From IMG/VR virus record IMGVR_UViG_3300045988_115807: DNA of 46,701 nt. One strand, written 5' to 3'. The position numbers and the translations under genes were made by a program. Below, one piece after another: positions 604 through 40,722 of this stretch. How positions within the stretch are numbered: position 1 is the stretch's first letter; every line of letters begins with the position of its first letter. The notes under the pieces were generated by a model. That model did no database searches. It worked only from the letters and a program-made list of their open reading frames with translations, and was not told the origin of the DNA. Source of the stretch: a virus. Lineage: Duplodnaviria; Heunggongvirae; Uroviricota; Caudoviricetes.

Positions 604-1629
604 ATGTCGATGTACACAACCGCCCAGCTGCTGGCGGCAAATGAGCAGAAATTTAAGTTTGATCCGCTGTTTCTGCGTCTCTTTTTCCGTGAGAGCTATC
701 CCTTCACCACGGAGAAAGTCTATCTCTCACAAATTCCGGGACTGGTAAACATGGCGCTGTACGTTTCGCCGATTGTTTCCGGTGAGGTTATCCGCTCCCG
801 TGGCGGCTCCACCTCTGAATTTACGCCGGGATATGTCAAACCCAAGCATGAAGTGAATCCGCAGATGACCCTGCGTCGCCTGCCGGATGAAGATCCGCAG
901 AATCTGGCGGACCCGGCTTACCGTCGCCGTCGCATCATCATGCAGAACATGCGTGACGAAGAGCTGGCCATTGCCCAGGTGGAAGAGATGCAGGCAGTTT
1001 CTGCCGTGCTTAAGGGCAAATACACCATGACCGGTGAAGCCTTCGATCCGGTTGAGGTGGATATGGGCCGCAGTGCGGCCAACAACATCACGCAGTCCGG
1101 CGGCACGGAGTGGAGCAAGCGTGACAAGTCCACGTATGACCCGACCGACGATATCGAAGCCTACGCGCTGAACGCCAGCGGTGTGGTGAATATCATCGTG
1201 TTTGATCCGAAAGGCTGGGCGCTGTTCCGCTCCTTCAAGGCCGTCAAGGAGAAGCTGGATACCCGTCGCGGCTCTCATTCCGAGCTGGAGACAGCGGTAA
1301 AAGACCTGGGCAAAGCGGTGTCTTATAAGGGAATGTATGGCGATGTGGCCATCGTCGTGTATTCCGGACAGTACGTGGAAAACGGCGTCAAAAAGAACTT
1401 CCTGCCGGACAACACGATGGTGCTGGGGAACACTCAGGCACGCGGTCTGCGCACCTATGGCTGCATTCAGGATGCGGACGCACAGCGCGAAGGCATTAAC
1501 GCCTCTGCCCGTTACCCGAAAAACTGGGTGACCACCGGCGATCCGGCGCGTGAGTTCACCATGATTCAGTCAGCACCGCTGATGCTGCTGGCTGACCCTG
1601 ATGAATTCGTGTCTGTACAACTGGCGTAA
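604..1629 (+). CDS. E: major capsid protein E
   Basis: MSMYTTAQLLAANEQKFKFDPLFLRLFF... matches lambda gpE (341 aa); start chosen at the MSMY ATG rather than ORF-track 577. Confidence 0.95.
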   Translation: MSMYTTAQLLAANEQKFKFDPLFLRLFFRESYPFTTEKVYLSQIPGLVNMALYVSPIVSGEVIRSRGGSTSEFTPGYVKPKHEVNPQMTLRRLPDEDPQNLADPAYRRRRIIMQNMRDEELAIAQVEEMQAVSAVLKGKYTMTGEAFDPVEVDMGRSAANNITQSGGTEWSKRDKSTYDPTDDIEAYALNASGVVNIIVFDPKGWALFRSFKAVKEKLDTRRGSHSELETAVKDLGKAVSYKGMYGDVAIVVYSGQYVENGVKKNFLPDNTMVLGNTQARGLRTYGCIQDADAQREGINASARYPKNWVTTGDPAREFTMIQSAPLMLLADPDEFVSVQLA

Positions 1630-1669
1630 TCGTGGCCCTTCGGGGCCATTTCTCTCTGTGGAGGAGTCC

Positions 1670-2068
1670 ATGACGAAAGATGAACTGATTGCCCGTCTCC
1701 GGTCGTTGGGTGAGCAACTGAACCGTGATGTCAGCCTGACGGGGACGAAAGAAGAACTGGCGCTTCGTGTGGCAGAGCTGGAAGAGGAGCTTGATGACAC
1801 GGATGAAACTGCCGGTCAGGACACCCCTCTCAGCCCGGAAAATGTGCTGACCGGGCATGAAAATGAGGTGGTATCAGCGCAGCCGGATACCGTGATTCAG
1901 GATGCGTCTGATCTGGTCACGGTCGTGGCACTGGTGACGCTGCACACCGATGCACTTCACGCCATCCGGGATGAACCTGTGGCATTTGTGCTGCCGGGAA
2001 CGGCGTTTCGTGTCTCTGCCGGTGTGGCAGCCGAAATGACAGCGCGTAGCCTGGCCAGAATGCAATAA
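1670..2068 (+). CDS. FI: DNA packaging protein FI
   Basis: MTKDELIARLRSLGEQLNRDVSLTGTKEELALRVAELEEELDD... matches lambda FI; internal ATG of ORF 1601-2068. Confidence 0.9.
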   Translation: MTKDELIARLRSLGEQLNRDVSLTGTKEELALRVAELEEELDDTDETAGQDTPLSPENVLTGHENEVVSAQPDTVIQDASDLVTVVALVTLHTDALHAIRDEPVAFVLPGTAFRVSAGVAAEMTARSLARMQ

Positions 2069-2079
2069 CGGGAGGCGCT

Positions 2080-2433
2080 GTGGCTGATTTCGATAACCTG
2101 TTCGATGCTGCCATTGCCCGCGCCGATGAAACGATACGCGGGTACATGGGAACGTCAGCCACCATTACATCCGGTGAGCAGTCCGGTGCTGTGATACGTG
2201 GTGTTTTTGATGACCCTGAAAATATCAGCTATGCCGGACAGGGCGTGCGCGTTGAAGGCTCCAGCCCGTCCCTGTTTGTCCGGACTGATGATGTGCGGCA
2301 GCTGCGGCGTGGAGACACGCTGACCATCGGTGAGGAAAATTTCTGGGTAGACCGGGTTTCGCCGGATGATGGCGGAAGCTGTCATCTCTGGCTTGGACGG
2401 GGCGTACCGCCTGCCGTTAACCGTCGCCGCTGA
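2080..2433 (+). CDS. FII: head-tail joining protein FII
   Basis: MADFDNLFDAAIARADETIRGYMGTSATITSGEQSG... matches lambda FII (117 aa). Confidence 0.9.
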   Translation: MADFDNLFDAAIARADETIRGYMGTSATITSGEQSGAVIRGVFDDPENISYAGQGVRVEGSSPSLFVRTDDVRQLRRGDTLTIGEENFWVDRVSPDDGGSCHLWLGRGVPPAVNRRR

Positions 2434-18410: not shown

Positions 18411-19376
18411 TTAATTATCAGTAGATTGTTCCTCTAGTAACAACTCAATTCTGCTTAGTATTTCTTTAGATATTTTTCGGCTATCAATTTTTATAGTTAC
18501 AAAATTACCTTTATATCTAGCCGTGATCCCTTCCCCATATTTTTTCTCGTCTTTTGTTTTTTCCTCGTCGCCAACCAGAACAGAGTCAGATAATATTTGT
18601 ATAATCCGTGAAGCTTCTAAATCCTCGCCGTTTTTTTTAATTGCCAGAAGATGATGAGCAGCATTGCTCATGGCAGCCATGTTTTTTTTGTAGACCTTAA
18701 ACAAAGAATCTCCAGCACGAGCTGACAGTTCTCCTGGATGATTGAAGATAGCTAATATATCTTTTGGTAGACCAGCTGTATTAATACAGCGAGTGATAAT
18801 ATTTCTGTCTATATTTTCAGCCTCGGCTAATGCTTTAACGTTACCATCAAAGTCATTTAGCTTGCGTAAGTATCTCTTTCCTCTTTCGTATGCACTAATA
18901 GGCCTATAATCGTTACCAATTTGGGATAACCAATGCATCTGTTCATCGTCGAGATCACCTATTAAGACGCGATAGTCACATCCTGTTAATATCGCTGCTT
19001 TTCTTCTACGTGAGCCGTCAGCGACTTCAACGACTCCAGACACTTTTCTGGCGAAAGCTGGATTTTGTTGTCCAGACGTTAGAAAAGATGGGATTAAATC
19101 GGCTAGAGAGGATTCATTTAATAAATCTTGATCGCGTTCATTACCTAGCCATACCATTGTTGCCATTTCAACTTTATCTGCGGGAATTGTCTCTAACTTA
19201 AAGTTAACATTACGTCCGCATACTGGCAAAGTTATGCTGTTACCGGTTAATGAACTCAGTTGACGTTTTAAATCACCAACCATAGGTGATACGGGCTGAT
19301 GTTCAGGGGCATGATGATTATTACTCATAATGCGATTAATATCTGGAGCATTTTTTAGAAGAGAGCGCTGTTTCAT
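18411..19376 (-). CDS. sopB: partition protein SopB (ParB-like centromere-binding protein)
   Basis: ...ITLPVCGRNVNFKLE...WLGNERDQDLLNE...LIPSFLTSGQQNPAFARKVSGVVEVADGSRRRKAA...GNDYRPISAYERGKRY... closely parallels F-plasmid SopB from memory. Confidence 0.9.
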   Translation of the reverse strand: MKQRSLLKNAPDINRIMSNNHHAPEHQPVSPMVGDLKRQLSSLTGNSITLPVCGRNVNFKLETIPADKVEMATMVWLGNERDQDLLNESSLADLIPSFLTSGQQNPAFARKVSGVVEVADGSRRRKAAILTGCDYRVLIGDLDDEQMHWLSQIGNDYRPISAYERGKRYLRKLNDFDGNVKALAEAENIDRNIITRCINTAGLPKDILAIFNHPGELSARAGDSLFKVYKKNMAAMSNAAHHLLAIKKNGEDLEASRIIQILSDSVLVGDEEKTKDEKKYGEGITARYKGNFVTIKIDSRKISKEILSRIELLLEEQSTDN

Positions 19377-20542
19377 TATTCGTTCTCCCAGCGAGGTTTT
19401 ATTAGATCATCAAAAATTTCTCGGCAAACAGGGTCCCATATAGAAACAGCATTTCTCCATGCATTCAATGTTGAACGTTGGTTTGCTGCTTGTTCAAATA
19501 CTGTTCTCATTTTTATCTGGCCTTTACCTACTTCATCGGTAACGCGTACAACCTGACGTAATACCATTGATCCCCATGTATTTCTTATTTGTTCTTCCAT
19601 CCATCGTGATTGATTCCCTGTAGTGAGACTATATTTAGTCAGAAGTAAGCGAACGGTTGGCTCAAATCCACCTAGGTCAACGCTTTCCAATAGATCGAGA
19701 AGCATTGTGAAAAACTGTAGAACAGAAGCGTAATCAAATAATTCTGCAGGTGTAGCAACAACAATAACGTCAGCGGCACAAACAACGTTAATGGTTCCTG
19801 TACCGAGGTTCGGAGCACTATCTATAACGATAACATCGTAGTTATCCCAAACTGATTCAATAGCTGCGCGCAGCATAAGGTGTGGAGGATGAGGCAATTT
19901 ACCCTGAGCATGATATTGCATGAGATCTGTTTCTATACGATGTAAAGCTAGGCAGCTAGGGATAATGTCTAGCCCAGGCCAACATGTTGGCTTTATAGCA
20001 TATTCAGCGTTATCGCGTTCTCCTAAGTAAAATGGCAGTAAAGTATCCTCGGCATGGATATGTAAATCAGGAACATAACCGTGATACATAGAGGCCGTGC
20101 CTTGAGGATCGTTACCTTCAACCAAAAGAACACGATGACCTTGTAATGCTAACCATTGAGCTTGATGTACCGCAGACGATGTTTTATAAACGCCGCCTTT
20201 GTGTGACATAACGGCAAGCACAACAGGGTTTTTATCTTGTGGTCGTTGGTTTGGGTTGCCAAAAACTGCTCGCATACTGTTGATTTGATCTATGGTATAA
20301 CCAGCACGACGTTCAATTCTTCCTCTCATTTCAAAGTCAGGTGCAGGTAAACGCCCGCTCTTCTCAGCATCTCTAATTGCTTGAGGAGTTACACCAATTA
20401 AATCTGCTACTTCAGTTATACCCCATCGGCGGGTGATACGCCGAGCTTCAGGACTATCATCACCGAATTGAGCGATAGCAATTGCTTGGGTCATTTCTTG
20501 ACCTCTCGTAACACAATCTTGCAATAACTTTTTCAAAGACAT
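19376..20542 (-). CDS. sopA: partition ATPase SopA (ParA, Walker-type)
   Basis: ...AIAIAQFGDDSPEARRITRRW...HKGGVYKTS...LLVEGNDPQGTASMYHGYVPDLHIHAEDTLLPFYLGE...IDSAPNLG... near-colinear with F SopA from memory. Confidence 0.95.
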   Translation of the reverse strand: MSLKKLLQDCVTRGQEMTQAIAIAQFGDDSPEARRITRRWGITEVADLIGVTPQAIRDAEKSGRLPAPDFEMRGRIERRAGYTIDQINSMRAVFGNPNQRPQDKNPVVLAVMSHKGGVYKTSSAVHQAQWLALQGHRVLLVEGNDPQGTASMYHGYVPDLHIHAEDTLLPFYLGERDNAEYAIKPTCWPGLDIIPSCLALHRIETDLMQYHAQGKLPHPPHLMLRAAIESVWDNYDVIVIDSAPNLGTGTINVVCAADVIVVATPAELFDYASVLQFFTMLLDLLESVDLGGFEPTVRLLLTKYSLTTGNQSRWMEEQIRNTWGSMVLRQVVRVTDEVGKGQIKMRTVFEQAANQRSTLNAWRNAVSIWDPVCREIFDDLIKPRWENE

Positions 20543-21191: not shown

Positions 21192-23093
21192 ATGAGCAAA
21201 GTAAAAATCGGTGAATTAATAAACTCACTTGTTAGCGATGTTGAGTCAATAGATAACTCTGACCGTCCTCAAGGGGAGAAAACAAAAAAAATAAAGGCTG
21301 TTGCATTAAAATTTAAAAATGCATTATTTAATGACAAGCGAAAGTTTAGGGGGAAAGGATTAGAAAAAAGAATTACAGCCAACACATTCAATGCCTATAT
21401 GAGCAGGGCCAGAAAACGGTTTGATGATAAACTTCATCATAGCTTTGAAAAAAATATACATCGCCTATCTGAAAAGTATCCTTTATATAATGAGGAGCTA
21501 TTGTCATGGCTTTCTCTACCTGCTGCCGATATTCGCCAGAGAATGTCAGCTTTACAGGCAAAATTAAAATTAATTCTCCCTCTATCAGAAGATTTATCTA
21601 ATATCAGAATTGGCGATAACAAAAGTCATAATAAGTTATTGAAATTATCAAATAAATATAAAGAGTGGCAATTCGCCATTTCTGATTTAACTAGCGATAA
21701 CTGGAAAGATAAGCGCGATTATTTATATAAATTACTACAGCAAGGATCTGCCTTACTTGAGGAGTTGAATCAGCTAAAAGTTAACCATGAGATTCTCTAT
21801 CATCTTCAACTAAGCCCTGCCGAACGTGCATCTATCCAGCAACGATGGGCGGACGTTCTGCACAATAAGAAACGTAACGTGGTGGTCATTGATTACCCTA
21901 AATATATGCAAGCTATTTACGATATTATAAATAGCCCTGCTACATTAAATAATCTAAACACTCGTTCAGGTATGGCTCCTTTGGCATTTGCACTTGCTGC
22001 ATTGTCAGGAAGACGAATGATTGAGATTATGTATCAAGGTACATTTACTGTTTCTGGTAAGTATACCGTTGATTTTTTAGGCCAAGCTAAAAAAAGAACT
22101 TCTGATAATATAACCAGAAAAATATATACATTATGCGAAGCAAAAACATTTGTTTATTTAATAAATGTACTTCGCTCATGCCCAGCAGCATCTGATTTTG
22201 ATGATGTCGTTAAAGGTTATGGAGATAACGACACACGCTCTGAAAACGGACGTATTAATGCCATATTAGCAAAGGCTTTTAACCCGTGGGTTAAATCATT
22301 TTTTAAAGATGACCGCCGTGTTTATAAAGATAGTCGTGCTATTTATGCCCGTATTGCGTATGAAATGTTTTTCCGCGTAGATCCTCGTTGGAAAAACGTA
22401 GATGAAGATGTTTTCTTTATGGAAATTTTAGGCCATGACGATGAAAACACTCAATTACACTATAAGCAATTCAAGCTGGCCAACTTCTCAAAGACATGGA
22501 GGCCAAATACTGGAAACGAAAATACCAGGCTGGAAGCATTGCAGCAGCTTGATGACGAAATGCCTGGATTCGCCAGAGGAGATGCCGGGGTTCGTCTGCA
22601 TAACACAGTTAAGCAGCTGGTAGAGCAGGACCCCTCTATAAAAATCACGAACAGCACTCTAAGAGCGTTCAAATTTAGCCCAACAATGATTAGTCGATAC
22701 CTGGAATTTGCTGCTGATGCTCTGGGGCAATTTGTTGGCGAAAACGGACAATGGCAACTGAAAATAGATACTCCAGAAATCGTTATGCCTGACGAAGAAG
22801 AACTGGAAGCAATACCTGAACTGGCGGATGAATTATCAGAGGATGACGATCTGGATGACGACGAAATTGAGATAGAGGAAGAGGAAGAGGAAGAGGAAGA
22901 TAGCGTAGAAGAACAGCAACCGCCTGCACCTTCTTCGCCTGTATCTAAGCCGGTATTTAAGCCGGTGAGAAATATTGGTGATGGCTCATACGTTGTTGAG
23001 TTTCATTATAATGGCCAGAATTATGCGTGGTCCGGCAGTGCAAACAGCCCCATGTCAGCAATGCAGTTAGCATGGCTGACATATTTCGGTTAA
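21192..23093 (+). CDS. telN: protelomerase TelN (telomere resolvase)
   Basis: 633 aa; MSKVKIGELINSLVSDVESIDNSDRPQGEKTKKIKA...RSGMAPLAFALAALSGRRMIEIM...HDDENTQLHYKQFKLANF... matches N15 TelN from memory; acidic Glu/Asp-rich C-terminal stretch. Confidence 0.95.
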   Translation: MSKVKIGELINSLVSDVESIDNSDRPQGEKTKKIKAVALKFKNALFNDKRKFRGKGLEKRITANTFNAYMSRARKRFDDKLHHSFEKNIHRLSEKYPLYNEELLSWLSLPAADIRQRMSALQAKLKLILPLSEDLSNIRIGDNKSHNKLLKLSNKYKEWQFAISDLTSDNWKDKRDYLYKLLQQGSALLEELNQLKVNHEILYHLQLSPAERASIQQRWADVLHNKKRNVVVIDYPKYMQAIYDIINSPATLNNLNTRSGMAPLAFALAALSGRRMIEIMYQGTFTVSGKYTVDFLGQAKKRTSDNITRKIYTLCEAKTFVYLINVLRSCPAASDFDDVVKGYGDNDTRSENGRINAILAKAFNPWVKSFFKDDRRVYKDSRAIYARIAYEMFFRVDPRWKNVDEDVFFMEILGHDDENTQLHYKQFKLANFSKTWRPNTGNENTRLEALQQLDDEMPGFARGDAGVRLHNTVKQLVEQDPSIKITNSTLRAFKFSPTMISRYLEFAADALGQFVGENGQWQLKIDTPEIVMPDEEELEAIPELADELSEDDDLDDDEIEIEEEEEEEEDSVEEQQPPAPSSPVSKPVFKPVRNIGDGSYVVEFHYNGQNYAWSGSANSPMSAMQLAWLTYFG

Positions 23094-26449: not shown

Positions 26450-26641
26450 TTACTCCCCGTTCACCGAAAATTCACGATAGAAACGTTTCCACATACGATA
26501 AGTCTGCGCAAATTGTTCACCACGAAACATCGCCTTCCTGGCCTTCATGTTTTCCTTGTGAGACTTTCGGTCTATGAACCAAAACCATTGATGGAACACA
26601 CAAAGCAAGAGACACAAAGATAATATCCAATCATTACCCAT
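26450..26641 (-). CDS. small hydrophobic protein (63 aa) overlapping the repA stop
   Basis: Internal ATG of ORF 26450-26758 (MGNDWILSLCLLLCVFHQWFWF...), overlapping the repA 3' end by 8 nt. Confidence 0.35.
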   Translation of the reverse strand: MGNDWILSLCLLLCVFHQWFWFIDRKSHKENMKARKAMFRGEQFAQTYRMWKRFYREFSVNGE

Positions 26642-29600
26642 AGAAAGCGCCCTGCTCTTCGTAGCTGCATGAGCTATTCCCCGTAATGTATTCACGTAAC
26701 CGCCGCAGCTCATTGCTGGAAAGGTGATCCATGAACTCTGTGAGGTACAGGGATGCAAACGTCATAGCTATGCTGGCTGATGACCATGATGACATAGTGG
26801 CCAACTCCTCACTGGAAAGCGCACTCATCGCCCAGGACTCAGGTACAGCCACTGGCAACACGGCCAAAGCCTCAGAAATTACTGAATGAGGGGCGTTTTG
26901 AACCTGCTCGTTTGTGGATCGCGTTTTATCATCCATATATATATTGAGATCCAAATCGCGATCCATTTCGATGGCTGTCTTCTCGGCTTTACGCGTTTTT
27001 AGGGTTAGGCCATCTTTCTGACGCTGAACAAGAATATCCAGCATAAATGCCGCTGATTCAGGCTCAACAAAACGCAAGGTTGGACGCTTATCGCCGTCTC
27101 TGCCGCGACGTTTACCTGTTTTAAGGCCAAGAGAGTCGCAAATGTTTTTAAACAACGCTTCCGGCACTTTAGGCTTCCCTTTTGGCGTCATAAAACCACC
27201 AATGTGCAGAACGTTATTCAACAGGTCACGGCGTTCGGCTGTCATGAGGTTATCTCGAGCGAATTTGAGACGCTCCTGAGTCGCCTCGCCGGTCATAGTC
27301 TCAGGGTTGATACCGCAGTCGATAAAGTACTGCCGGAGAGTTGCTGATTTAAGCGCATAGAAACCGCGCGCCCCGACTTCAACAGTAGGAGTAGCTTTTA
27401 CCTTGTGATCGATTATTCCAGGGAATTTAGTTTTAAAGACATCATCAGCCTGCTCGCGAGTCATCGCGGTCACTACAAAATATTGCCACTGTCCCGCCTG
27501 ACGGTATGTGTAGGTAAAATTGATGGCTGCTTCTTCCCGGTCGTAACGACGAGCTGTTACCTCATCTAAAAGCATTGTTTCATAGCGGCGAACTTTGTCT
27601 CGAGCACCATCGAAATAGAATTTCAGCGTGCCTTCTTCAACCGGTAGTTTCAGTTCGTTTTCAATATCCCAGCGGACAAGTTTTGCCTGTTCTTCAAGCG
27701 TCAGCGCGCGTTTTTTTAGCAGTTCTTCACGCTCTGATTCTTGTGGTGTTTCTGTATTGAGGTGCAGATCCAGTGTCTGTTCCCACACAATATCCCGCGC
27801 TTCTTTACGCAGATCTTTACCGATATCATTCGCAGCATAATCGGTGGCCAGCGGTGATACCTTATAACCGTCGCTGTGCATGATGCAGATCATGTTGCTG
27901 GCGTAGTCGTTACGCGCAGTCGCTTCAATTGCGGCTGCTTTAATTTTCATCCTGGTAAAGTCGGTATTGGCCACCCCCATTGATATACGGTCGCCATCGA
28001 AAACGACATCCGTAAGTTCACCGTTCATACCTGCGGTAGCAAGCAATGCCTGGGCGAATGCTCGTTCTATTTTTTGCGGGTCAGTTTCACGTTTTGCACG
28101 AGCTTTATCAAAGCCGATAATAAATTCTTTTGCTGTACGGTCGCGGCGTAGCATTTGCACTGCATCACTGGGTACAACTTCACCACAGAACATGCCGAAA
28201 TGACGGTCAAAATGTTTTTGCTCAATCGACACGCCGGATGAAATAGACGGGCTATAAATCAGGCCGTCGTATTTTTTGACCATCTTTTTCGGTTGATTGG
28301 TAAATGCTTCAACTTCTGGCTCTGGTTTGTTTTTCTGGTTTACACACAGAAATTTCTTACCAGGAAAATGCATTCTCAGGGTGGCTGTCACATCTTCTGC
28401 AAAGGTGGAGCTGTCGGTGGCCAACATGATTTTTTCGCCATCCGATACAGCTTTCACCACCTCGGTCATGATGCGATCTTTTTCTGTATAAAAAACCCGG
28501 ATTGGCTCACCTGTTTCGCGGTTGCGAACATCAACAGGTAATTCAATTACGTGGATCTGCAGCCATGCCGGTAAACCTAGTTCTTCACGGCGTTTCATAG
28601 CCAGTTCAGCCAGGTCAACCAGCAGATCGTTCGCATCAGCATCCACCATGATTGGGTGTTGTTCCGTTCTGGCCAGCGCGTCAATTAGCGTATTGAATAC
28701 AGCCACCGGGTTTTCCATAGCCCGACCGGAAAGAACGGCACGTAGCCCTTGTGTGGCCTCGTCAAAGCCAAAATAGTCGTGCTGGCGCATCAACGGTTGC
28801 CAGCAGTTTTTAACAATCGAGTTTATGCAGATGGTCAGTTTACTGGCGTATGGAGCCATTTCCTGATAGCCAGGGTCCTGATAGTGCAGGATATCGGTTT
28901 TTACACCTTTTCCTTCTGTCATCATTTCCCACAGGCCACCAATAAGGGAAACACGGTGAGCAACAGAGATACCACGTTCTGAGCTATGCATTAAAGGTCG
29001 TAACAATCCAGTAGATTTGCCGGAACCCATACCAGCACGAACGATGACTATCCCCTGTAGTGATTGCACATACTTCAGGACGTCATCGGTCATTACCGAA
29101 GTTTCAAAACGCTTATAGGTGATATGTTGAGGACGTTTATTGGGATCAGTTATGCGTTCGCTGAATGAGCGCGGAGCCTGGGCAATACGGCACTTTTTAT
29201 TCAGGCGACGGGCAATGTGGTCTTTTACCGTAGCGCGATAGATATTTTCCAGCCCCATTTCACGCAGAACGATGCAGAACATGTTAAATAAGTCTGACGG
29301 ACTGTTAGGAACCGGACAGGTTAGCATGCCAATATCCACCGCTCTCAGCAGCTCTTTGGCAAAAGTACGACGGTTATCCCGCTTAATTGTCTTCAGGCGG
29401 TTGAGCGTCAGAGATAGCAAATCAGTGCCGGTTTTCAGGCGGTTTGCAGTTGCAAACAGTTGACGTGCTGTTTCACGAAGTCCACGCAGTTTGTGCAGGT
29501 CGTTGAAGTCACTGCACTCCATTTGCGGATCGTCTTCAAAAGTTGGATAGACGCAGCGGACATCGTTGAATTTCGATAAGATTTCATAGCCAGTCCGCAG

Positions 29601-30629
29601 GCCGGTATTCCCTTTTCCTTCTGTGGCTGATTTCCGGTCATTATCCAGTGCGCAGGTGATTTTTGCCGCCGGGTACATGTTTACCAGTTGTTCCACAACA
29701 TGAACCATGTTATTAGCGGATACAGCGACAACCACAGCGTCAAAGCGTTTATCTTTTTTCGTGGCAAGCCAGATGGATGCACCAGTAGCAAAACCTTCTG
29801 TAACAGCGATGTTTTGCGCCCCTTTTAGCTCACCGATAACAAAGCAGGCACCGACGAAATCGCCGCTGGTTACGGCGCTGGTCTGGTATTTTCCACCTTG
29901 TTTGTCGATTCGCTGCCAACCCACAATACGACCATCGTAACGACCGTCCAGGTGAGCCAGAGGGATAGCCATATACGTGGTTGGCCCCCTGCTCCATTTT
30001 GCGCTGTCGTGACTGGTCACGCGACGCACATCACACGAATTAAAAACGTCACGAATACCTTTTTTAATCGCATATGGCCATGAGCCGTCTTCTGCAGGAG
30101 CATGTTCCCACGCGCTGTGGAATGCCAGCCATCCCAGCAAACGTTCATGGTCCATTTGGTTGTTTTTCAGGTCATTAATTCGTTTTTGTTCTTCACGGCG
30201 ACGACGTGCTTCGGCCTGACGTTCTATTCTTGCCCGTTCTTCTTCCGGTTGTGCGACCACGGTCGCATTATTCCGTTGTTGCTCACGGCGATATTCAGAA
30301 AACAGGAAGGAGAAACCGCTCCATGAGCCAGCATCGCTGCCTTTATGGACGAAGTTAATGAACGGGTAATCAATCCCTTTGCTGTGTTCCAGCCGGGAGT
30401 AAATTTCTACGCGTCCTTTGAGGCTCTTTTCGAGAGCTTCTGGAGATGTTTTATTGTATGAAGAGTAACGCTCAACACCCCCGCGAGGGTTGAGTTGGAT
30501 GTTGTCGGAACAGGCAGACCAGTTGATACCAGCCATCTGTGCCAGCTCGGTTAGTTCATCCCGTGCTGCTTCAATTAGCGAGAACGGATCGCTGCCAAAG
30601 CGATCCGCATAGAAATCGTTTAATGTCAT
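26634..30629 (-). CDS. repA: replication protein RepA (primase-helicase, N15 RepA-like)
   Basis: 1331-aa ORF; contains Walker-A-like GMGSGKST; size and position next to cB match N15 repA, whose 3' part is reported to contain the replication origin. Confidence 0.9.
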   Translation of the reverse strand: MTLNDFYADRFGSDPFSLIEAARDELTELAQMAGINWSACSDNIQLNPRGGVERYSSYNKTSPEALEKSLKGRVEIYSRLEHSKGIDYPFINFVHKGSDAGSWSGFSFLFSEYRREQQRNNATVVAQPEEERARIERQAEARRRREEQKRINDLKNNQMDHERLLGWLAFHSAWEHAPAEDGSWPYAIKKGIRDVFNSCDVRRVTSHDSAKWSRGPTTYMAIPLAHLDGRYDGRIVGWQRIDKQGGKYQTSAVTSGDFVGACFVIGELKGAQNIAVTEGFATGASIWLATKKDKRFDAVVVAVSANNMVHVVEQLVNMYPAAKITCALDNDRKSATEGKGNTGLRTGYEILSKFNDVRCVYPTFEDDPQMECSDFNDLHKLRGLRETARQLFATANRLKTGTDLLSLTLNRLKTIKRDNRRTFAKELLRAVDIGMLTCPVPNSPSDLFNMFCIVLREMGLENIYRATVKDHIARRLNKKCRIAQAPRSFSERITDPNKRPQHITYKRFETSVMTDDVLKYVQSLQGIVIVRAGMGSGKSTGLLRPLMHSSERGISVAHRVSLIGGLWEMMTEGKGVKTDILHYQDPGYQEMAPYASKLTICINSIVKNCWQPLMRQHDYFGFDEATQGLRAVLSGRAMENPVAVFNTLIDALARTEQHPIMVDADANDLLVDLAELAMKRREELGLPAWLQIHVIELPVDVRNRETGEPIRVFYTEKDRIMTEVVKAVSDGEKIMLATDSSTFAEDVTATLRMHFPGKKFLCVNQKNKPEPEVEAFTNQPKKMVKKYDGLIYSPSISSGVSIEQKHFDRHFGMFCGEVVPSDAVQMLRRDRTAKEFIIGFDKARAKRETDPQKIERAFAQALLATAGMNGELTDVVFDGDRISMGVANTDFTRMKIKAAAIEATARNDYASNMICIMHSDGYKVSPLATDYAANDIGKDLRKEARDIVWEQTLDLHLNTETPQESEREELLKKRALTLEEQAKLVRWDIENELKLPVEEGTLKFYFDGARDKVRRYETMLLDEVTARRYDREEAAINFTYTYRQAGQWQYFVVTAMTREQADDVFKTKFPGIIDHKVKATPTVEVGARGFYALKSATLRQYFIDCGINPETMTGEATQERLKFARDNLMTAERRDLLNNVLHIGGFMTPKGKPKVPEALFKNICDSLGLKTGKRRGRDGDKRPTLRFVEPESAAFMLDILVQRQKDGLTLKTRKAEKTAIEMDRDLDLNIYMDDKTRSTNEQVQNAPHSVISEALAVLPVAVPESWAMSALSSEELATMSSWSSASIAMTFASLYLTEFMDHLSSNELRRLREYITGNSSCSYEEQGAFYG
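30250..30266. repeat. sopC-like centromere palindrome (copy within the repA 5' region, 17/18 match)
   Basis: GTGCGACCACGGTCGCA(T); same dyad as the other four copies. Confidence 0.55.
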
Positions 30630-30874: not shown

Positions 30875-31471
30875 TCATCTACCCTCAACCATGAATGATT
30901 TGATCGTTCCGACTATTTGGTGAACAAATTCAAGATCGCTTTTCCTGAAGATGGCGCGTTGTGAATTTGTTCCGTCCAGATAGTAATTTTCATCATCAAA
31001 ACGGGCCAGGCGCTGGATGGTGATATTTCCTGCAGTATCACGAACCAGAACATCCTCGCCGGGAACCAGTTCCAGCGCAGAATCGACCAGGAGAAAATCG
31101 CCTGGCTGATAGTTTCCCTGCGCCAGATTGCTGATAGTTAACGCATAAACAGTATTGCGCTGGCTGATGAATGGCAGGAATCGCTCAGTATTTGGAACCT
31201 GTCCTGGCTTCCACTCTTCATCAGGTCCACTTTCAGTTGTGCCAATAACAGGAATGCGATCAGGGTCATATTCTGTCCCATACAGCACCCAATGCACTGG
31301 CTTGCGTAAGCACTTAGCCAGGGCAATACCTATCTCCAGTGACGGCATTACGTCGCCACGTTCTAAGTTTTGGACGCCTGCAATAGAGATATCGACAGCC
31401 TCAGCAACTTCTCGCAACGTCAGCTTCATCTCTAAACGGCGTGCTTTCAGTCGTTCGCCTCGTGTTTTCAT
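30875..31471 (-). CDS. cB: prophage repressor CB (HTH N-terminus, CI/LexA-like C-terminal domain)
   Basis: MKTRGERLKARRLEMKLTLREVAEAVDISIAGVQNLERGDVMPS... HTH_XRE-type N-terminus; divergent from cro; position as N15 cB. Confidence 0.85.
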   Translation of the reverse strand: MKTRGERLKARRLEMKLTLREVAEAVDISIAGVQNLERGDVMPSLEIGIALAKCLRKPVHWVLYGTEYDPDRIPVIGTTESGPDEEWKPGQVPNTERFLPFISQRNTVYALTISNLAQGNYQPGDFLLVDSALELVPGEDVLVRDTAGNITIQRLARFDDENYYLDGTNSQRAIFRKSDLEFVHQIVGTIKSFMVEGR

Positions 31472-35969: not shown

Positions 35970-36188
35970 ATGGTATTAGATTCAATGACTGAAGCACCTG
36001 TATCAACTCTTGAAGAACTCGGATCAAACCTAAAAGACATCGACGCCGTTTTGGATCTGGTTAGCGTTGCTCTGGCTTCTCCAGAAGCCAGCTTGCATCT
36101 TGGCGAGATTTCACGACTTGTTAGTATGTCGCGGGAGATTGCTCAGAATTGCCAACAAGTTATTGCTGTTGAGTGTTTGCATCATTGA
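35970..36188 (+). CDS. small protein downstream of the LexA box; candidate SOS-inducible antirepressor (AntC-like by position)
   Basis: 72-aa acidic ORF; the promoter region upstream carries the LexA box and a TTGGCTATAAAATTT half-site also present in the cB-cro operator. Confidence 0.45.
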   Translation: MVLDSMTEAPVSTLEELGSNLKDIDAVLDLVSVALASPEASLHLGEISRLVSMSREIAQNCQQVIAVECLHH

Positions 36189-36231
36189 TACACACCCCGC
36201 CCTTCTGGACGGGGTAGCGAAAAGGGTCTAA

Positions 36232-36519
36232 TCAATAGACGGCATTAATATTAATCGTTGCACCGCATGCTTGGGCATATTTTGATAAAGTTTTCATGCT
36301 TGCCCCTAAAGGATTGCTTTCCAGGCGGCTGATAGCTGACGGGCGCAATCCCATTCGTTCAGCCAGAGCTGACTTCGTTAAACCTGCTCTTTCCCTCATT
36401 TCGTATAACATTTCGACCATCTCCAGCTCTTTATCGGCCTCTTCATATCCTTTGATGGCTTCTGGAGTGTTGAGAAGTTTTTCTTTTACTTCGTTAAACG
36501 GGATGCCTTTCGCTTTCAT
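36232..36519 (-). CDS. HTH (XRE-family) antitoxin, HigA-like
   Basis: ...RERAGLTKSALAERMGLRPSAISRLESN... HTH; start overlaps the toxin stop by 1 nt (TGATG). Confidence 0.7.
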   Translation of the reverse strand: MKAKGIPFNEVKEKLLNTPEAIKGYEEADKELEMVEMLYEMRERAGLTKSALAERMGLRPSAISRLESNPLGASMKTLSKYAQACGATININAVY

Positions 36520-36830
36520 CAGTTCATCTCCTTCAGGCGAGTTCTGGCGATTTCGATAGCCTTCACCGGTGTTTTCTGTGTCTTTTTTACAAATGCATGC
36601 AATAGATAAATTTCGTTACCAGTCGCGTAGGCGTACAGCGTTCTTGCGATGTTTTTATCCCCTACTCGTAGTTCAAAAAGCCCTCCACCTATTACACGGC
36701 TATGGGGCATCTTCAGTTTGTTGCCTTCCTTCTCCAGTCGCTCAATTAATCTGGTCATGCGACCTCGCAAATCATCTGGTAGTTCAAGCAGTTCATCCAG
36801 TGCTGCAGGGTGGGTTATCACGTTAAACAT
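36519..36830 (-). CDS. RelE/ParE-superfamily toxin, HigB/Gp49-like
   Basis: 103 aa; toxin-first operon order with a downstream HTH antitoxin, typical of HigBA / Gp49-like modules. Confidence 0.7.
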   Translation of the reverse strand: MFNVITHPAALDELLELPDDLRGRMTRLIERLEKEGNKLKMPHSRVIGGGLFELRVGDKNIARTLYAYATGNEIYLLHAFVKKTQKTPVKAIEIARTRLKEMN

Positions 36831-36888
36831 ATTATAGCCTCCATAGCCATAAAATACACCAAAACAAGAAAAAAGCGCAAATTAAAAA

Positions 36889-36906
36889 TTTCACTAAAAA
36901 GTGAAA
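36889..36906. promoter_or_regulatory. inverted repeat in the toxin-antitoxin promoter region (candidate operator)
   Basis: TTTCAC-TAAAAA-GTGAAA, about 60 bp upstream of the toxin start. Confidence 0.35.
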
Positions 36907-36995
36907 AATAACACTGGATGTGTTCGTTTGGCAGAGTTACAGTTCGTGTCATTGAGGGGCAATAACCCACTAACTATATGAATTTGGAGGATATT

Positions 36996-37217
36996 ATGAA
37001 TTATCAAGGTAACGAAAAAATGCGCGACGACGTTGCGGAGATAGCTAACGAACTGTATGAGTTGTGGCAGAAGGTTGAACGTTTCGAAAAGGAATATGGT
37101 TTCAACAGTACCAACCTGGCAGACCGACTGGCTGGTCGCTTAGTTGGGACTATGGGGCCAAAACTGGCTGAGTTGAACCGCTTTATGGCTGATGTTGATT
37201 TCCAGTTTCAAGATTGA
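36996..37217 (+). CDS. hypothetical protein (73 aa)
   Basis: GGAGGA RBS; MNYQGNEKMRDDVAEIANELYELWQKVERFEKEYG... Confidence 0.5.
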   Translation: MNYQGNEKMRDDVAEIANELYELWQKVERFEKEYGFNSTNLADRLAGRLVGTMGPKLAELNRFMADVDFQFQD

Positions 37218-37458: not shown

Positions 37459-37463
37459 AAACT

Positions 37464-37481
37464 GTGCGACCACGGTCGCAC
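37464..37481. repeat. sopC-like centromere palindrome
   Basis: GTGCGACCACGGTCGCAC (extends to CTGTGCGACCACGGTCGCACAG). Confidence 0.65.
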
Positions 37482-37566
37482 AGCACAAAAACGAAAAAGC
37501 TTGGCAAAATTACGGTTTTTAGTTATTGTTTTGTTAAGTTGGGTTTTTTGTACCCAACAGCCAACA

Positions 37567-37592
37567 AGCCGCCTTTATGGCGGTTTTTTTGT
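37567..37592 (+). terminator. rho-independent terminator
   Basis: AGCCGCCTTTATGGCGGTT followed by TTTTTTG. Confidence 0.6.
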
Positions 37593-37725
37593 GCCTGAAA
37601 AGTGGGCGCAGGACAAGTTGCAGCTTGTCCTGCGGTCAACCCATGCCAGAGCTATAGGCTGAACCTAAAGCCCACCCGCGATGCGCATCGCCGGGTTAGC
37701 TTACCCAGGCAAAAAAATAATAGCT

Positions 37726-40521: not shown

Positions 40522-40722
40522 ATTAAATACCGCGCTGCATCGTCGCCGTATTTCCGCATTAACCATGACCGTAGCCCGACGGGGAACTCCTCTGCGCGAG
40601 TGTGCGGAAATAATCAAAAACGATGCACACCGGGTTTTTACCGCGCTAATGATTCGCGGGTTTGTCCCTCATGCTCGCCAGTCCTGTGCGAGGGTGGAAG
40701 AAACAGGGCATGTATTCAGGAG

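Follow-up and report, generated by a model that had tools for sequence, protein, structure and literature searches.

A HigBA-type toxin–antitoxin pair, probably an addiction module, on an N15-like linear phage-plasmid

Why would a phage genome keep, in the middle of a long run of genes that all read rightward, two small genes that read the other way, and what could such a pair do for its carrier? The question is raised by IMG/VR record IMGVR_UViG_3300045988_115807, a stretch of 46,701 nucleotides from a member of the Caudoviricetes (the whole stretch is called the window hereafter), in which positions 36232-36906 hold two short minus-strand genes with a dyad symmetry upstream of them. A first reading made from the letters alone (the sequence-only reading) had taken these for a HigB/HigA-like toxin–antitoxin (TA) pair, and had offered linear-plasmid maintenance or abortive-infection-type defence as possible roles. 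We conclude, with a probability of roughly 0.88, that the module is orthologous to genes 49 and 48 of phage N15 and would serve a linear plasmid prophage by post-segregational killing (addiction). The HigBA module of N15-type elements is already known, and the observation is correct but ordinary.

The toxin and antitoxin genes

The first gene of the pair (36519..36830, minus strand, from the list of open reading frames, ORFs) encodes a protein of 103 amino acids (aa) and is the higB gene or N15 gene 49 orthologue, predicted by homology to specify a Gp49-type mRNA endonuclease of the RelE superfamily. It is followed by the higA gene or N15 gene 48 orthologue (36232..36519, minus strand), whose 95-aa product has an N-terminal extension and a C-terminal helix-turn-helix (HTH) domain of XRE type. 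The toxin stop codon TGA (36521-36519) and the antitoxin start codon ATG (36519-36517) have exactly one base in common (TGATG), so that the gene order, the two lengths and the 1-nt overlap given by the sequence-only reading were all confirmed from the ORF list and the sequence. Across 20 homologous loci the overlap amounts to 1, 4, 8 or 11 nt. Each gene is preceded by a Shine-Dalgarno motif, that of the toxin gene being GGAGG (36838..36842, minus strand), 7 nt before the ATG and unchanged among the aligned relatives, and that of the antitoxin gene AAGGAG (36528..36533, minus strand), 8 nt before the ATG. The latter lies within the 3′ end of the toxin gene, which together with the TGATG overlap implies translational coupling. 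That is, the locus consists of two small, adjacent genes on the same strand with the toxin first and with overlapping stop and start codons, the second gene encoding an XRE/Cro-type DNA-binding domain, as is characteristic of reverse higBA operons. The classification of the pair as a type II TA operon of the "reverse" (toxin-first) higBA or tad-ata arrangement is thus supported by its layout and its protein families.

The toxin matches the Pfam family Gp49 (PF05973) over the entire profile (residues 12-100 on positions 1-90 of 90) with 101.6 bits, against a cut-off of 23.9, and E=2.5e-29. Gp49 was the sole Pfam family at E<=0.01 for this protein, and the profiles of ParE-type gyrase poisons were thus not matched at that threshold. 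The family, named after gp49 of N15, corresponds to DUF891 and COG4679 and comprises the "Tad" or Gp49-type HigB toxins of the RelE/ParE superfamily. The window toxin shares 92.2% of its residues with N15 gp49, and proteins of phages YDC107_1 and PhiR46_1 match it at 100% identity. When a profile of 25 diverse members of the toxin family was compared with the sequences in the PDB, it matched HigB of Streptococcus pneumoniae (6AF3, E=2.5e-13) and HigB1, or HigB-TAC, of Mycobacterium tuberculosis (7NBU and 7AWK, E~5e-9), although pairwise similarity to these solved proteins is low (E=5.5e-05 for 6AF3 and E~0.04 for HigB1). All of the solved toxin relatives among the PDB matches are HigB mRNases. 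The antitoxin matches the Pfam profile HTH_3 (E=1.6e-12, residues 38-88), is 86% identical to N15 gp48, and has weak PDB sequence matches to HipB, to HigA2 (7EWC, E=0.005) and to the S. pneumoniae HigA chain 6af3_B; a scan of the antitoxin against NCBIfam returned sub-threshold HTH matches only. The families proposed earlier, a Gp49/HigB-like toxin and an XRE-HTH antitoxin, are therefore those that the profile search recovered.

HigB-TAC is a ribosome-dependent mRNase for which a catalytic pocket consisting of E66, R68, N73, R77, F93, K95, Q98 and K99 has been proposed, and its K95A variant is non-toxic (Mansour et al., PMC9098466). Pairwise alignments, with chain numbering offsets of +6 for 7NBU and +20 for 6AF3, place the equivalents of these residues in the window toxin at E53, R55, N60, R63, F80, K82, Q85 and K86, the R63 equivalence requiring a one-residue loop shift in the HigB1 alignment. 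Among 106 distinct homologues drawn from genomes and viral contigs, E53, R55, F80, K82, K83 and R98 are invariant, and R63, H78 and Q85 are conserved in 99%, 98% and 91%, respectively. Because the pocket residues are present and conserved, the window toxin has what is expected of an active HigB of the Gp49 type.

The dyad and the promoter upstream of the toxin gene

The dyad TTTCAC-N6-GTGAAA (36889..36906) lies 59-76 nt upstream of the toxin ATG and is the probable operator of the operon. It extends to arms of 7 bp (TTTCACT-TTTT-AGTGAAA) and is the single match to this pattern in the window, even with one mismatch permitted; at that tolerance 0.25 matches are expected by chance per window, and 23% of shuffled windows contain one. 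Perfect inverted repeats of at least 7 bp and at least 6 bp arise in 5.9% and 21%, respectively, of dinucleotide shuffles of the 147-bp A+T-rich intergenic region. Taken alone the dyad is thus borderline with respect to chance, and its significance therefore rests on comparative data. Its arms are invariant in N15, phiKO2 and YDC107_1 and, in an alignment of these phages with a Klebsiella phage-plasmid, they are conserved whereas the stretch from the dyad to the ribosome-binding site varies. Across the upstream regions of 41 distinct relatives, 93% of the cells at the seven proposed pairs hold complementary bases, and at three positions both sides have changed. The resulting covariation score of 0.126, as opposed to 0.058 in shuffles, was reached in 0 of 500 column shuffles and exceeds that of all slid registers. 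Symmetric variants include TTTCAT...ATGAAA on an IncF plasmid, TTTCTA...TAGAAA at a further locus (L011), TTTCTC...GAGAAA in Xenorhabdus, TTTATC...GATAAA both at locus L140 and in Gilliamella, and TTTAGTTATAACTAAA in Erwinia.

Two further observations bear on the function of the dyad. The homology of the IncF plasmid copy begins ~5-10 bp upstream of the dyad and ends at the antitoxin stop codon, and the homology of Enterobacter phage MStein-2023a with the window ends where the dyad would start; that is, the dyad marks the upstream edge of a mobile cassette. Moreover, HigA2 of M. tuberculosis, the partner of a Gp49-type toxin, binds the site ATATCAC-N6-GTGATAT as defined by electrophoretic mobility shift assay (PMC11205783), and the dyad has the identical CAC-N6-GTG core and spacing. 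Because conservation, covariation, the cassette boundary and the parallel with the HigA2 operator combine in its favour, the best reading of the dyad is that it is probably an operator bound by the antitoxin or the TA complex, rather than the "terminator" annotated in N15.

The sequence-only reading had placed the dyad in the promoter of the pair. The dyad is indeed present, and the placement is approximately right, as the dyad lies 8 bp upstream of the -35 element of one candidate promoter (P2) or directly downstream of the -10 element of another (P1). P2 (36851..36880, minus strand) is the most likely of the two and consists of a -35 element TTGCGC (36880-36875), an 18-nt spacer and a -10 element TATTTT (36856-36851). 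In most of the distinct relatives (37 of 55), the highest-scoring sigma-70 match includes a -10 element ending 17-25 nt before the toxin ATG, and promoters of the P2 type come near to consensus in diverged lineages (TTGACA-17-TATATT at locus L132, TTTACA-18-TATAAT at locus L133). From this position we infer that P2 is the more probable promoter, although its window version is weak (7/12) and falls below the threshold of the consensus scan. P1 (36905..36934, minus strand; -35 element CTGCCA, 18-nt spacer, extended -10 element TGtTATTTT) abuts the left arm of the dyad, which it would put at the start of the transcript. P1 is best-scoring (8/12) in the window's own lineage only, and the stretch that the cassette has in common with the IncF plasmid does not include the P1 -35 element. 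A third promoter-like site (37000..36973), the only one that the consensus scan of 36100-37100 returned, was rejected as TA promoter, since such sites are less frequent than expected by chance and this one is not conserved in N15.

Some of these data weigh against the operator assignment. The promoter of the window lineage is weak and ambiguous between P1 and P2; under P2 the dyad would be centred ~53 bp before the predicted start, where repressor sites are unusual; and the C-G pair of the dyad is broken in 11 of the 41 sequences, the symmetry being imperfect in a fair share of close relatives. A different explanation is that the dyad is transcribed and forms a hairpin, which would be a weak intrinsic terminator, an attenuator or a stem that stabilises the RNA. 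The same sequence in the N15 record (40551-40571, on the strand of gene 49) is labelled "putative rho-independent transcription terminator", and as RNA the dyad would fold into a stem of 7 bp capped by a UUUU loop, with U5 after it (-6.2 kcal/mol, z=-3.3). The symmetric covariation suits a hairpin equally well as a palindrome, some variants are G-U-compatible (3 GU and 2 UG at one pair, 3 UG at another), and in the IncF copy both arms have changed (CAC/GTG to CAT/ATG) despite an unchanged antitoxin recognition helix. Yet an A/U-rich stem of 7 bp makes a poor terminator, and the terminator scan made no call at the dyad. Single-arm mismatches that would destroy the stem are common among phages with 100% identical toxins (TTTAAC, TTTCTC, TTTCCC, and GTTAAA in Klebsiella). 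Moreover, the dyad lies upstream of the promoter that is conserved across lineages and hence outside the TA transcript, the neighbouring genes all read rightward so that no upstream leftward unit needs termination, and the core and spacing fit an experimentally defined operator. We therefore rank the hairpin below the operator and regard it as rather unlikely.

The arms of the dyad do not vary alike. The inner bases of the left arm (36901-36903) are polymorphic (CAC, CGC, AAC, CTC, CCC, ATC) in phage-plasmids with toxins 92-100% identical, as compared at six loci (L089, L090, L095, L098, L107 and L113); the right arm AGTGAAA is nearly fixed, with AGTTAAA in many Klebsiella-type copies. This asymmetry could reflect relaxed or tuned autorepression, or a right arm doubling as part of an UP-like element. 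A simple code linking recognition helix and dyad arm across lineages was sought and rejected for want of a clean correspondence: two loci (L012 and L010) share the helix motif SAITRLE with arms CAC and CTC, respectively. The dyad region recurs 35 bp downstream (36851-36873) as a degenerate direct copy with 17 of 23 bases alike, across the P2 spacer and -10 element, and N15 carries a similar TTTTTAGTATATTT at this position; the copy may be a weak second operator or merely the product of T-rich composition. A permissive Rfam search gave six matches, all far under their gathering scores. One of these, a RyhB-like match over the dyad (26 bits vs 55), was dismissed as a chance match to a hairpin followed by a U-run.

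At the other end of the operon, a G+C-rich hairpin (36191..36219, minus strand) follows the antitoxin stop codon, between the antitoxin gene and the convergent gp47-like ORF, and is the likely 3′ end of the operon. Folded as minus-strand RNA it reaches -20.6 kcal/mol (z=-3.2); it is without a T-run, and the promoter and terminator scan of 36100-37100 called no terminator, there or elsewhere in that interval. The equivalent place in N15 (locus L003, 5625-5665) has a strong canonical terminator (-38 kcal/mol, with T-run). Canonical terminators, with stem and T-run, stand at the operon end in N15, phiKO2 and Klebsiella copies, and the window hairpin is unrelated to them; the segment from gp47 to the antitoxin gene cannot be aligned between the window and its close relatives.

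Role of the module and its slot in the phage-plasmid

Addiction is the best-supported role because the pair is orthologous to the N15 module, because its distribution is confined to plasmids, and because a close copy lies beside an IncF replication gene. The gp49/gp48 pair of N15 is a TA stabilising system according to Dziewit et al. (2007, J Bacteriol 189:1983), as cited in PMC2701414 and PMC5906591. The exact 679-bp module was found in 16 of 5426 complete Escherichia coli genomes, in all cases on plasmids, usually of ~46 kb, and in none on the chromosome. In RefSeq, these exact copies are annotated by the Prokaryotic Genome Annotation Pipeline (PGAP) as "type II toxin-antitoxin system RelE/ParE family toxin" plus HTH regulator, and the feature is therefore already annotated in public records. 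More widely, toxins of the Gp49 family occur in 3723 plasmid records, mostly as distant relatives in Klebsiella, and 329 plasmid records have a toxin at least 80% identical to that of the window. A 93%-identical copy of the cassette, dyad and promoter included, is carried by a conjugative IncFIA/FIC plasmid of E. coli O6:H16 (NZ_CP022914.1, 1120-1799; locus L005), ~1 kb downstream of an IncFII-family repA. Of the two roles offered by the sequence-only reading, linear-plasmid maintenance is thus the one that the N15 orthology and the plasmid-only distribution favour.

The proposed mechanism is modelled on characterised Gp49-type HigB toxins, among which HigB-TAC is ribosome-dependent. In the lysogen, a weak sigma-70 promoter directly upstream of the toxin gene would give rise to one bicistronic mRNA, from which toxin and antitoxin would be produced by translation coupled through the TGATG overlap. 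The N-terminal part of the antitoxin would bind and neutralise the toxin, its C-terminal XRE HTH would dimerise and bind DNA, and the antitoxin or the TA complex would repress the operon from the TTTCACT-N4-AGTGAAA dyad. In a daughter cell that has lost the plasmid, the labile antitoxin would be degraded, and the freed 103-aa toxin would cleave mRNA in the ribosomal A site, so that plasmid-free segregants stop growing. The lability of the antitoxin and neutralisation by direct binding are what we infer for this family, toxicity and stabilisation are assumed from published work on relatives (N15, SXT, pAMI2 and Acinetobacter baumannii), ribosome-dependent cleavage of mRNA from that on HigB-TAC, and A. 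baumannii HigBA2 provides the precedent for autorepression in which the toxin is co-repressor.

Several points weigh against an addiction role for an active HigB. No specific NCBIfam model matched the toxin, and a single-sequence AlphaFold2 model was too poor for a fold search (mean predicted local distance difference test score, pLDDT, of 45); the order of secondary-structure elements in this low-confidence model, H-H-E-E-E-E-H, fits a RelE-like fold with its N-terminal helices, four-stranded antiparallel sheet and long C-terminal helix. N15-type plasmids, the window included, have SopAB partition genes as well. The SXT homologues made an unstable test plasmid more stable, yet deletion of the pair did not raise the loss of the native SXT element (PMC2654960); an effect seen on a test plasmid is no proof of the same in the native replicon. 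Finally, two Gp49-family members of M. tuberculosis, HigB2 and HigB3, are non-toxic (PMC9098466). The last finding would also suit a pair whose toxin is weak or inactive and which is mainly a transcription regulator, its HTH protein controlling phage or host genes, as would the control that M. tuberculosis HigA2 exerts over several genes beyond its own operon (PMC11205783). Such a regulator is nevertheless very improbable here: the window toxin has the equivalents of the HigB-TAC catalytic pocket, which do not vary within the family, its 92%-identical counterpart in N15 belongs to a TA module cited as validated, and the dyad occurs once in the 46.7-kb window even with one mismatch allowed, so that the element has no second target.

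Another explanation is that anti-phage defence, by abortive infection or superinfection exclusion, is the main role and plasmid stabilisation a side effect. Once an invading phage had halted host transcription, decay of the labile antitoxin would let HigB arrest translation before the invader's cycle is complete. Type II TA modules on prophages can act in such an abortive-infection manner, and the slot is a TA exchange hotspot (hicAB being present in one relative), a rapid turnover that is also typical of defence islands. In a search with PADLOC, the antitoxin had matches to generic HTH models and the toxin matched NsnC in part, its residues 43-95 aligning with the C-terminal positions 229-282 of a 293-position model (E=2.6e-07). 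This match reflects only the shared RelE-like core, however, and no complete defence-system signature was found in PADLOC-DB 2.0. The exact E. coli copies, which are all on plasmids, and the close copy beside an IncF replication gene both suit addiction instead, and no paper on a defence phenotype of the Gp49 subfamily turned up in literature searches that were not aimed at defence. With one protein matched in part, and no component matched at full length, the abortive-infection-type defence of the sequence-only reading is left without support, and we consider defence as main role improbable. It is less probable still that release of the toxin is tied to the state of the phage by the antisense site of the cassette, which lies within the rightward early operon, after the Q gene and before the late promoter. 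The weak TA promoter would then be unopposed in the lysogen, and upon induction strong rightward transcription would collide with it and produce antisense RNA, antitoxin synthesis would drop, and the freed HigB would help to shut off host translation or punish failed inductions. The operator upstream of the -35 element would act on an UP-element-dependent promoter, and a slot selected for any TA pair would explain the replacement by hicAB. No sequence feature was found that requires a new mechanism for the antisense placement.

By its gene content the window is an N15-like linear phage-plasmid. Its predicted proteins include a protelomerase of the TelK/TelN type (21192..23093), SopA- and SopB-like partition proteins (18411..20542), a RepA of 1331 aa (26634..30629) and, on the minus strand, a CB-like repressor with HTH and S24 peptidase domains (30875..31471). 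Over 90% of its length, the right half of the window aligns with Escherichia phage YDC107_1 (genus Ravinvirus) at 97% identity; its identity to plasmids of E. fergusonii and E. coli is 99%. Downstream of the repressor, all annotated genes of YDC107_1, N15 and phiKO2 lie on the plus strand until the terminase genes (cro, Q, exonuclease and others, followed by lysis and terminase genes), the sole exception being the TA pair; the remaining minus-strand ORFs of the ORF list are each nested within a longer plus-strand ORF. The earlier statement that the pair are the only minus-strand genes between 31.5 and 41 kb therefore holds, the CB-like repressor ending just before 31.5 kb and the annotated relatives agreeing. 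The pair had also been described as inserted antisense. It is antisense, but it is inserted on an evolutionary scale only, as N15, phiKO2 and YDC107_1 have in common the gene order gp46, gp47, gp48 and gp49 (opposite strand), gp50, gp51 and methylase, and the slot is filled in N15, phiKO2 and the Klebsiella and E. coli relatives alike.

The occupant of the slot can nevertheless change. In Enterobacter phage MStein-2023a (CP115603.1, locus L156; Ravinvirus; 1459-2420, minus strand), the gp50 homologue is present and the Gp49 toxin is absent. Its antisense slot encodes instead a HicA toxin of 60 aa (PF07927, E=6.8e-10) with a HicB-like antitoxin of 143 aa, and after these comes what is left of a gp48-type antitoxin, truncated to 63 aa. 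The slot thus exchanges non-homologous TA cassettes, either higBA or hicAB. Between the dyad and the start of gp50 lies a block (36915-36955, minus-strand reading GACACGAACTGTAACTCTG...CACATCCAG) that is conserved in N15, phiKO2, the phage-plasmids of Klebsiella and the phage with hicAB. It is not conserved in the IncF plasmid copy, so that the block is assigned to the phage backbone and not to the TA cassette; it may serve gene 50 as a promoter or regulatory site. Farther downstream, on the plus strand between the gp51-like ORF and the gene of a 373-aa DNA methylase, a cluster of Rfam matches to hairpin-type RNAs (37459-37680; AgrB, ctRNA_pGA1 and Trp leader), all under their gathering scores, corresponds by synteny to the late promoter and subsequent terminator (Q-antitermination site) annotated in N15 and phiKO2.

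As a discovery the pair carries little weight, since it is a known addiction system of N15-type linear phage-plasmids that RefSeq already annotates. The module is useful as a marker and helps to explain the persistence of ~46-kb phage-plasmids in E. coli, E. fergusonii and Klebsiella, the same ~690-bp cassette occurring also on conjugative IncF plasmids. Two points possibly go beyond existing annotation: the "terminator" stem-loop of N15 may be the operator of Gp48, and the slot appears to be a site of TA exchange.

Comparison with known systems

The closest known system is gp49/gp48 of N15, which resembles the window pair in the lengths of its products (103 and 95 aa), the one-base overlap, the antisense position in the slot between gp47 and gp50, and the upstream dyad. 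The two differ by 8 substitutions in the toxin and 13 in the antitoxin, and the window has a 1-nt deletion in the promoter, a weaker -10 element and a different hairpin in place of the strong terminator of N15. Tad-Ata of Paracoccus aminophilus plasmid pAMI2 and s044-s045 of SXT likewise combine a COG4679/DUF891/Gp49 toxin with an XRE-HTH antitoxin, have the toxin gene first, and stabilise plasmids (PMC2701414, PMC2654960). They are apparently distant in sequence, and they reside on a circular plasmid and an integrative conjugative element, respectively, and not on a phage-plasmid.

Among the systems with solved structures, HigBA of S. pneumoniae (6AF3) and HigB-TAC (7NBU/7AWK) share with the window toxin the conserved pocket residues E, R, R, F, K and Q. 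Gp49-type HigBs have a long C-terminal helix, which is also predicted in the low-confidence model of the window toxin. HigB-TAC, however, needs a SecB-like chaperone, whereas the window locus is without a chaperone gene, and the operator of M. tuberculosis HigA2 lies within the higB2 coding region, whereas the window dyad is intergenic, upstream of the operon, and has different flanking bases. HigBA2 from an A. baumannii plasmid matches the predicted role of the window module in that a reverse operon with a Gp49-domain toxin confers plasmid stabilisation; its toxin is an RNase, and HigA2 represses the promoter with HigB2 as co-repressor (PMC5906591). It differs in its ~20% identity to Tad-type toxins and in its unusually large hetero-oligomer (PMC5906591). 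The phd-doc module of phage P1 is built from unrelated families (a Fic/Doc kinase and Phd) and has its antitoxin gene first, yet it is analogous in role, being an addiction module on a prophage that replicates as a plasmid (as cited in PMC12977533).

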